From contig OZ241993.1 in the NCBI GenBank assembly GCA_965204575.1, positions 1,040,586 through 1,104,585 on the forward strand: a stretch of DNA of 64,000 nucleotides. The letters are read 5' to 3'. The position numbers and the translations under genes are program-made. Each line of letters opens with the position of its first letter. The stretch's first letter is position 1. The notes below the pieces were generated by a model. That model had not been told where the DNA came from and ran no database searches. It saw only the letters and a list, made by a program, of their open reading frames with translations. This document shows, piece after piece, positions 32,654 to 35,685 of the stretch. The DNA is from an uncultured candidatus Porisulfidus sp. (GTDB taxonomy: Bacteria; Pseudomonadota; Gammaproteobacteria; Poriferisulfidales; Poriferisulfidaceae).

Positions 32654-33652
32654 ATGCCGCAATTCGAATCCCTTCAGAGTGACGCCGATGCCGCCATCGC
32701 GGCGGCGACCGACACGGCTGAACTGGAACGCCTGAGAGTCGCCTACCTCGGCCGCAAAGGCCAGGTCACCGTGGCCCTGCGCGGGCTCAAGGATCTTCCG
32801 GCCGACCAGCGCCCGGAAGCCGGGGCCGAGATCCAGGCGATTCGCGCCCGCATCGAACAGGCGCTCGCCGAACGCGGCGAAGCGCTGGCCGAGACCGAGG
32901 TGCAGGCCCAGGTCGCGGCCGAACAATTGGATGTCACCCTGCGCGGGCGCGCCCTTTCGCCCGGCGCGCGCCATCCCACGATCCTGACCCTGCAACGCAT
33001 CTGCAACTGGTTCGCGCGCTTCGGCTACGGCGTCAACTACGGCCCGGAGATCGAGGACGACTATCACAACTTCGAGGCGCTCAACATTCCGCCGCAGCAT
33101 CCGGCACGCGCCATGCACGACACGTTCTATTTCGGCGACGGCCGCCTGCTGCGCACGCACACCTCGCCGGTGCAGGTGCGCACCATGAGCGAAAGCAAGC
33201 CGCCGATCCGGATCATCGCGCCCGGGCGGGTGTACCGTTGCGATTCGGATCCGACTCACAGCCCCATGTTTCACCAGGTCGAGGGCCTGTGCATTGAAGA
33301 GAATGTCAGCATGGCCGACCTGAAGGGCGTGGTCACGGCATTCCTGCGCGACTTTTTCGAGGACAGCGAGATCGAGACCCGTTTCCGGGCGTCCTACTTT
33401 CCGTTTACCGAACCGTCGGCGGAAGTGGACGTCCGGCGTGCAGGCGGAGACTGGCTGGAGGTGCTGGGGTGCGGCATGGTGCACCCGGCGGTGTTGAGGG
33501 AGGGCGGCATCGACCCGGAACGCTATACCGGCTTCGCGTTCGGCATGGGCGTGGAACGGCTGGCGATGCTGTACTACGGAATCCGCGACCTGCGGGTCAT
33601 GTTTGCCAACGACCTCCGTTTCCTGGGCCAGTTCGGAGGGAGCGCGCAATGA
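32654..33652 (+). CDS. pheS: Phenylalanyl-tRNA synthetase alpha subunit
   Basis: Class II motifs [16 protein letters not shown] and [14 protein letters not shown]. Confidence 0.95.
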
Positions 33653-35685
33653 AGTGTGACCTGAACTGGCTGTCGGAGTGGGTGGCGGAACTGCCGCCCG
33701 CCGAAGAATTGGCGCAGTCGCTGACCATGGCCGGGCTGGAGGTGGGCGATCATCGCGACCGGGTCCTGGAACTGGAACTGACGCCGAACCGCGGCGATTG
33801 CCTGAGCATGCGCGGCCTGGCCCGCGAGGTGTCGGCGCTGACCGGCGCAGAACTGCAGGAACCTTCCGAGCCCGAGGTCTCTGTCGACAAGTCGGCCGGC
33901 AAGCCGGGCCTCGGCGAGATCGAGGCCGATGCCTGTCCGTACTACAGCCTGCGTTTGATCGAAGGGATCGATCCGGATGCGGAGACGCCGCAATGGATGC
34001 TGGACCGCCTCGAACGTTCCGGCGTCCGGGCGCACCACCTGCTGGTCGACGTCACCAATTACGTCATGCTGGAACTGGGCCAGCCGCTGCATGCCTTCGA
34101 TGCGGACGCGGTATCCGGCGACGTTTCGGTGCGCTGGGCGCAGGCGCAGGAAATGATTCGCGCGCTGGACGAGACGCAGCTGATGCTCGACCCGGACATG
34201 CTGGTGATCGCGGTCGGGGAGCAGCCGATCGCCGTCGCCGGAATCATCGGGGGCGCCAACTCCGCGGTCGGCGAACAGACCAGCCGGGTTCTCCTGGAGT
34301 CGGCGCACTTCGCGCCGGAGGCGGTCATGGGGCGGGCCCGGCGCTTGAAACTCCACACGGAATCTTCGCGGCGCTTCGAACGCGGCGTGGATCCGCGGCT
34401 CGCGTTGCACGCGACGCAGCGGGCCACCGAACTCATCCTCGAATATGCGGGAGGGCGGGCGTCCGAAGTGGCGCATGCGGGGCGGTTGGCCCCGGCGTTC
34501 CGACCGGACCGGATCCGCCTGCGGGCTTCGCGCCTGGCCAAGTGTCTGGCGGTCGAGGTGGACGGGGCAGAGGCGAGCCGGATCCTGCGTGCGCTCGGTT
34601 GCCGGGCCAAGCAGGATGCCGGGCAATGGGAAGTGTCCGTGCCGAGTTGGCGCTTCGACCTGGAGATCGAAGAGGACCTGGTCGAGGAGATCGCGCGCGT
34701 GCATGGCTACGACCGGATCGAACCGGCCCCGGTTCCATTGCCGGCCGGTTGGGAAATTCCGTCGCAGCCGTGGGCCCGGCAACTTGAGCACTGCCAGTCG
34801 CGGCTGGTGGAATGCGGCTACTCGGAAGCCGTGACTTACAGTTTTACCGAAGACCGGCTGGAGCAGGCCTTCGCGCCGGGCTCCAGGCCGTGGCGGTTGC
34901 TCAACCCGATTTCGGAGGATCAGGCGGTCATGCGTTCGACGCTGGTCCCGAGCCTGCTGCGGGCCGCCCAGTACAACCTCAACCGGCAGCAGCCCAGCGT
35001 CCGGCTGTTCGAGGCGGCCAAGGTTTTTGCCCGGGACGGCGACGAGGTGCGCGAGACCGGGGTGCTCGGCGGCGTGGCCTGCGGGCAGGCGCATCCGCTG
35101 CAGTGGGGGGCGGTCGCGCGTCCGATTGATTTCTACGACGTCAAGGGCGATCTGGAGAACCTGCTGCAGGGTTGGTCCGGGTCGCTGGAATTCTCGTCGG
35201 CGGAGCATCCGGCGCTGCACCCGGGGCAGACCGCCTGCGTGAGCCTGGATGGACGGCAGATCGGAATTCTCGGCGCATTGCACCCCGGCCTGCATTCCGA
35301 GTTCGACCTCGGGGGTCCGGCGTTCGTGTTCGAGTTGGAGCTGGAAGCCTGGAGCGAATTCCCGGTGCCGCACTTCTCGGCCTGGCCGGAGTACCCGATG
35401 GTCATGCGCGACCTGAACGTGGTGGTGGCCGAAAGCACCCCCGCCTCCGCGGTGGAAGATTGCGTGCGTTCGCTCGACATCGAGCCGCTGCGGGAAGTGT
35501 CCGTGTTCGATGTGTATCGCGGCGAAGGTCTGGAACCGGAGCGTAAAAGTTTCGCATTGCGTTTGATATTCCAAAGTTTCTCAGGTACATTAAAGGACGA
35601 GGAAGTTGACGGATACCTCGAACAGGTGATCGCGCAGCTGGCAGAACTGTGGGGAGCAGAGACTCGGCAATGGGCAAAACCCTGA
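33649..35685 (+). CDS. pheT: Phenylalanyl-tRNA synthetase beta subunit, short form (678 aa) lacking the N-terminal tRNA-binding OB domain
   Basis: ATGA overlap with phe[13 protein letters not shown]...[37 protein letters not shown] passes from B1 directly to the TPNRGDC segment. The B3/4, B5 and FDX-ACB C-terminal regions are present. Confidence 0.93.

Follow-up and report, generated by a model that had tools for sequence, protein, structure and literature searches.

In bacterial PheT, the beta subunit of phenylalanyl-tRNA synthetase (PheRS), the B2 domain is an insertion inside the B1 domain (B1-B2-B1 topology), and Mycoplasma pneumoniae, with its split PheT, shows that this N-terminal module is a separable structural unit (PMC12494982). 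PheRS-beta chains without B2 have been reported in bacteria of the Candidate Phyla Radiation (CPR), some of which carry B2-TyrRS fusions (Mukai et al. 2017, PMC5370408). Here, we describe the pheT gene in a 64,000-nt stretch of an uncultured candidatus Porisulfidus sp. (contig OZ241993.1, positions 1,040,586 to 1,104,585; the whole stretch is called the window below), which encodes a 678-aa PheT lacking B2, the tRNA_bind/EMAPII-like OB domain. Judged from sequence comparison, the protein is very probably a functional bacterial-type beta subunit from which B2 was excised in frame in the ancestor of a whole gammaproteobacterial lineage.

As a kind of variation B2-less PheRS-beta is already known; what is new is an instance at the level of a lineage. 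The CPR proteins come from a different phylum, whereas the carrier here is a gammaproteobacterial, sponge-associated lineage, and no fusion of B2 to another synthetase, as in CPR, was seen in the sequence examined. M. pneumoniae keeps B1-B2-B1 and expresses it as a separate fragment, whereas in the window PheT only B2 is gone and B1 is fused to B3-B8. Archaeal and eukaryotic cytosolic PheRS beta chains also lack the B2 OB domain. They are ~590 aa long (PDB 3l4g_B). The window PheT differs from them in its bacterial type, shown by the family models below, and in keeping the bacterial B8 ferredoxin-fold anticodon-binding (FDX-ACB) domain. An engineered E. coli PheRS deltaB2 has the same architecture, a bacterial (alpha-beta)2 enzyme with B2 alone removed, but it is a laboratory construct, whereas the window PheT is natural, lineage-fixed and under selection.

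The short PheT and its B2 junction

The original prediction, made from the letters of the window, had proposed a 678-aa PheT without its N-terminal OB domain, and the 29-residue string it quoted is present in the pheT translation. The protein scores 599.1 bits against TIGR00472 (pheT_bact; NCBIfam, cut-off 402.65), in a match split in two stretches, and 114.2 bits against TIGR00471 (pheT_arch), under the archaeal/eukaryal-type cut-off of 282.65; on these family models it is clearly of the bacterial type. Its gene adjoins pheS in a thrS-infC-rpmI-rplT-pheST-ihfA operon, which also places it in the family. B2 is typical of TIGR00472 proteins, though not universal, and the window PheT does not have it: PF01588 (tRNA_bind) was not found by a Pfam scan even at E<=1, with the full-length relative P0035 serving as positive control (PF01588 at 87.9 bits). 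The other domains, B1, B3/4, B5, B6/7 and B8, together cover all 678 residues:

33649..35685, + strand: pheT, 678-aa PheRS beta subunit of the bacterial type, without B2 (TIGR00472, no PF01588, PDB alignments)
33649..33918, + strand: B1 region, residues ~1-90, continuous here and B2-interrupted in full-length PheT (alignment, AlphaFold model)
33745..33759, + strand: B2-excision junction, residues G33-D34-H35-R36-D37, in place of ~118 orthologue residues (alignment gap)
33931..34452, + strand: B3/4 editing domain, residues 95-268 (PF03483, 218.4 bits)
34513..34710, + strand: B5 domain, residues 289-354 (PF03484, 81.2 bits)
34765..35343, + strand: B6/B7 catalytic-like module (tRNA_synthFbeta), residues 373-565 (PF17759, 207.5 bits)
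35386..35667, + strand: B8 FDX-ACB domain, residues 580-673 (PF03147, 84.6 bits)

A phmmer search against PDB chains aligned residues 2-33 of the window PheT with residues 2-33, and residues 36-672 with residues 154-793, of 7n8y_B, a 795-aa enterobacterial PheT, relative to which ~120 residues are missing. Multiple alignment with orthologues gave a clean 118-column gap at B2, beginning after 34 residues, and this junction is identical in 14/14 of the clade members aligned. The missing domain proposed at the outset is thus borne out, its extent and place being slightly different: 118-120 residues rather than ~110, and not strictly N-terminal, the domain being an insertion inside B1. An AlphaFold2 model computed from the alignment (mean predicted local distance difference test score, pLDDT, 85.3; predicted template modelling score, pTM, 0.55) places the B1 elements at strand 2-4, helix 18-27, strands 31-36 and 39-43, and helices 46-51 and 54-65 (block pLDDT 70-91). 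In this model, strands 31-36 and 39-43 form a beta-hairpin across the junction, which lies in the turn region, as expected if the OB domain was cut out at its base. Since B2 is an autonomous EMAPII/Trbp111-like OB fold inserted between two B1 strands, its loss would require only that the strands be rejoined by a tight turn. In Foldseek the model matches beta chains of bacterial PheRS best, with 4p71_A at E=4e-71; with a root-mean-square deviation of ~22 A and a TM-score of ~0.5, the superposition was used for family identity and not for geometry, the high global deviation reflecting the loose domain arrangement in the monomer model.

Distribution of the short form

The short form is shared by the relatives of the window PheT. 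PF01588 is absent from all 33 of the protein clusters nearest to it (53-94% identity), whose lengths are 671-679 aa apart from three shorter fragments; several lie on contigs of 1-2.6 Mb. From the 34th match on (<=50% identity), the proteins are 789-800 aa, have PF01588 and belong to a Thioalkalivibrio, Ectothiorhodospira and Halomonas group, in which the nearest full-length relatives (Thioalkalivibrio and Ectothiorhodospira, 45-50% identity) retain B2. The exact window protein sits in a 59-member 90% cluster with members from NCBI, ENA, JGI and Logan assemblies. All seven GTDB species representatives examined from the lineage (L001-L007) have a PheT of 671-678 aa; they include the complete "uncultured candidatus Porisulfidus sp." chromosomes OZ243950, OZ220694 and OY764335 (1.57-1.85 Mb) and the sponge metagenome-assembled genomes (MAGs) COS4_bin_16 and RHO3_bin_14, and Porisulfidus is a known sponge symbiont (PMC12988363). 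Short-form proteins are monophyletic in a neighbour-joining tree made without the B2 columns. These comparisons point to one ancient in-frame excision of B2, inherited by the whole gammaproteobacterial lineage.

P0033 and P0026, the deepest members looked at, also share the gene order lpdA-thrS-infC-rpmI-rplT-pheS-pheT-ihfA-merR-lepB-rnc-era-recO-pdxJ and a 4-nt overlap of pheS and pheT. In the window, the pheS stop and pheT start share ATGA at positions 33649-33652, so that the overlap read as intact in the original prediction is confirmed. The operon genes next to pheT in the window are:

29522..32629, + strand: upstream operon genes thrS-infC-(rpmI)-rplT (open reading frame (ORF) list; same order, by Pfam labels, in related loci L081 and L082); thrS is taken from its first in-frame start codon, unrefined, and rpmI is not called in the ORF list
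32654..33652, + strand: pheS, 332-aa alpha subunit of PheRS; coiled-coil domain at the N-terminus, class II catalytic core (Pfam: tRNA-synt_2d 327.5 bits, Phe_tRNA-synt_N 75 bits)
35649..35963, + strand: ihfA-like gene directly 3' of pheT, whose listed start overlaps the 3' end of pheT (ORF list; Bac_DNA_binding gene at the matching position in L081 and L082)

The gene downstream of pheT in the syntenic loci L081 and L082 belongs to the HU/IHF family. An Rfam scan of the thrS-infC-rpmI-rplT-pheST operon (29522..33652) yielded no leader or attenuator RNA family at its gathering score.

Loss of B2 also recurs elsewhere in bacteria, and a B2-less PheT appears less unusual than the original prediction implied. 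Two soil MAGs, one of Burkholderiales (L030, 671 aa, L030:10001-12013) and one of Gammaproteobacteria (L031, 676 aa, L031:4637-6661), encode PheT without PF01588, with the junction displaced by 2-4 residues relative to the window clade, and both nest among full-length relatives in the neighbour-joining tree. An exhaustive HMMER search covered 1.84 billion 50%-identity representatives, of which the best 150 were assessed. Among these, 30 are <715 aa, and removal of fragments left 24 true B2-less proteins beyond the clade's own representative. Like the window PheT, L030, L031 and these ~24 representatives have a canonical N-terminus, a short linker and a TPNRGDC motif, but their linker lengths differ (in the 24, the TPNR motif lies at residue 45-68, compared with 45 in the window PheT), and they are scattered among full-length relatives; both features indicate separate loss events. 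Bacterial-type PheT without B2 is thus present in many further uncultured lineages, P0144, P0153, P0168, P0180, P0183, P0187, P0192, P0197, P0215 and P0228 being among the examples. A rough neighbour-joining tree covering the 146 nearest cluster representatives contains 19 all-short groups, and Fitch parsimony from a full-length root gives 18 state changes. Qualitatively, recurrent independent loss of B2 is a robust conclusion from these comparisons.

Three candidate observations were rejected. P0116 (683 aa, listed as lacking PF01588) proved on alignment to be a gene call cut short at its N-terminus, in which the C-terminal half of B2 survives; protein length alone can therefore mislead about domain deletion. 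Rheinheimera (L069, L070 and L080) and L042/L052, taken as short forms from tblastn spans, have ORFs of 796-804 aa. A clade-specific CPRY-to-CPYY change just after B1 was considered as a compensatory correlate of B2 loss, but the position is variable among full-length PheTs as well, and CPRY is often retained in other short forms; CPYY is a quirk of the lineage and no convergent signature.

Probable retained function and alternative explanations

Pairwise ratios of nonsynonymous to synonymous substitution rates (dN/dS) against six orthologues are 0.11-0.21 for the whole gene and 0.07-0.40 for the first 90 codons, and pheT is under purifying selection. An alignment of 45 sequences combining short and full-length PheT has ~100 invariant columns. 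For the editing site we compared the positions N254, H265, G318, E334, T354 and A356 reported for E. coli; the equivalents of the first five are all conserved (5/5), and the sixth, A356 in E. coli, is Ser here, as it also is in full-length relatives. Bacterial PheRS recognises tRNAPhe through B8 and the coiled coil of the alpha subunit. As both are present, the (alpha-beta)2 enzyme would still make Phe-tRNAPhe normally, and mischarged tRNAPhe would still be edited at the conserved B3/4 site. In the T. thermophilus PheRS-tRNAPhe complex described by Goldgur and colleagues in 1997, B2 reportedly makes no tRNA contact. A study of E. coli by Roy and Ibba in 2006 describes in its title the RNA-binding domain of PheRS, which we take to be B2, as dispensable and contributing to editing of noncognate aminoacyl-tRNA. 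In engineered E. coli deltaB2, tRNA affinity or editing efficiency is reportedly somewhat reduced. As in that enzyme, tRNA capture or affinity, or clearance of mischarged tRNA, may be somewhat weaker in the window PheRS. The lineage with the short PheT ("candidatus Porisulfidus" and sponge-associated MAGs) has chromosomes or contigs of ~1.4-2.6 Mb. B2 would be an accessory domain that bacteria can do without and have shed repeatedly, by reduction or neutrally; in this small-genome lineage its loss is most simply read as such shedding, with genome size as a circumstantial association.

That pheT is a decaying or non-functional copy, with a working beta subunit (full-length or archaeal-type) encoded elsewhere, is very improbable given the low dN/dS, the invariant columns held in common with full-length PheT, the conserved editing-site residues, and the canonical operon with translational coupling to pheS throughout the clade. 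The deletion was called clean rather than decayed in the original prediction, and an exact B2 excision with the remainder intact is what the alignment and the selection on the gene indicate. An assembly or sequencing artefact, meaning an in-frame ~354-nt deletion introduced by metagenome assembly, has the probable MAG origin of the source in its favour and nothing further; the same short form and junction recur in 33 clusters, at identities as low as 53%, and in independent assemblies, the 59-member cluster and several complete chromosomes among them, which rules an assembly deletion out for practical purposes. Just as negligible is the chance that B2 is present but diverged past recognition by a profile hidden Markov model (HMM): only 2-4 residues separate the segments aligned to positions 1-33 and 154-793 of the E. 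coli-type PheT, 678/678 residues are accounted for by the other domains, the predicted structure has a hairpin and no domain at the junction, and the orthologue alignment shows B2 excised exactly.

More weight, though still little, goes to the idea that B2 function is supplied in trans: a free-standing OB protein of the Trbp111/CsaA type, or B2 fused to another protein, would be encoded at some other locus and deliver tRNA to PheRS. Such supply has precedents, as B2-type domains move between synthetases in CPR, where B2-TyrRS fusions occur alongside B2-less PheRS-beta (PMC5370408), and Trbp111-type OB proteins bind tRNA free-standing (PMC11286949). Our own B2 HMM, built from 86 full-length homologues (controls 150-180 bits), found no B2-like sequence in six frames of the window and of nine short-form loci of 12-22 kb (best E=0.66), a search covering ~3% of the genome. 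In a Pfam scan, none of 30 further window proteins matched tRNA_bind; the window does not contain metG. Moreover, a replacement would not be required if the RNA-binding domain of PheRS is dispensable, as the title of the 2006 E. coli study has it. In-trans supply is therefore unlikely, and an inherited excision of B2 from a functional beta subunit remains the preferred reading.

Several points weigh against that reading. A second pheT copy or in-trans compensation may exist elsewhere in the genome. The expected kinetics are an extrapolation from what is reported for E. coli deltaB2, and the tie to small or reduced genomes is circumstantial, coming from contig sizes of 1-2.6 Mb only. The number of losses is approximate, being taken from a crude neighbour-joining tree of deep divergences, and a ranking by the top 150 matches favours colinear short forms.

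Other features of the window and implications

Apart from the pheST operon, the window holds a collagen-like cassette at 49297..57349 (+), with a GC content of 73-74% over 50-54 kb. It opens with two tandem 476/477-aa proteins that combine a YadA-type membrane anchor (PF03895) with long G-X-Y collagen triple-helix repeats (PF01391). After these come a 2OG-Fe(II) oxygenase at 52200..52832, a GT25 and PLOD-GT (collagen glycosyltransferase-like) protein at 52816..54267, an epimerase, and another 2OG-Fe(II) oxygenase at 56723..57349. The cassette looks like a surface collagen mimic with enzymes for collagen-type hydroxylation and glycosylation, in a sponge-symbiont-like genome. Between lpdA and thrS lies a low-GC (50-57%) stretch (~16700..29500) with many small ORFs, HipA-family toxin genes at 21138..22361 (-) and 24468..25769 (+), and a DDE transposase at 26155..27774 (-); as lpdA abuts thrS in L081, this stretch is an inserted island. 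A second insertion lies between recO and pdxJ, which are adjacent in L081 and L082 and here are separated by ~4 kb (~39500..43600) containing an IS1595-type transposase fragment (41026..41637) and unassigned ORFs. Two ORFs, at 5866..6816 (-) (316 aa) and 40053..40925 (-) (290 aa), match no Pfam family at E<=0.001 and have a coding-like GC content at third codon positions (GC3). The sole RNA gene detected in the window is tRNA-Pro(GGG), at 36357..36433.

For annotation, these results carry the warning that a PheT of ~675 aa can be legitimate, being neither a truncated gene call nor a misassembly. The B2-less PheT does not reveal a new mechanism, and what the B2 OB domain does in bacterial PheRS is so far understood only in part. 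It is conceivable, if improbable, that shedding of B2 is not neutral and marks lineages, these sponge-associated bacteria among them, with relaxed or re-routed PheRS quality control (clearance of Tyr- or m-Tyr-tRNAPhe) or tRNA capture. An OB protein acting in trans would be one such route, and the natural deltaB2 series could in that case serve for testing what B2 is for. The persistence of a lineage without B2 over >45% sequence divergence, and the many independent losses elsewhere, confirm in nature that B2 is dispensable and put natural deltaB2 enzymes on offer for comparative kinetics and editing assays.

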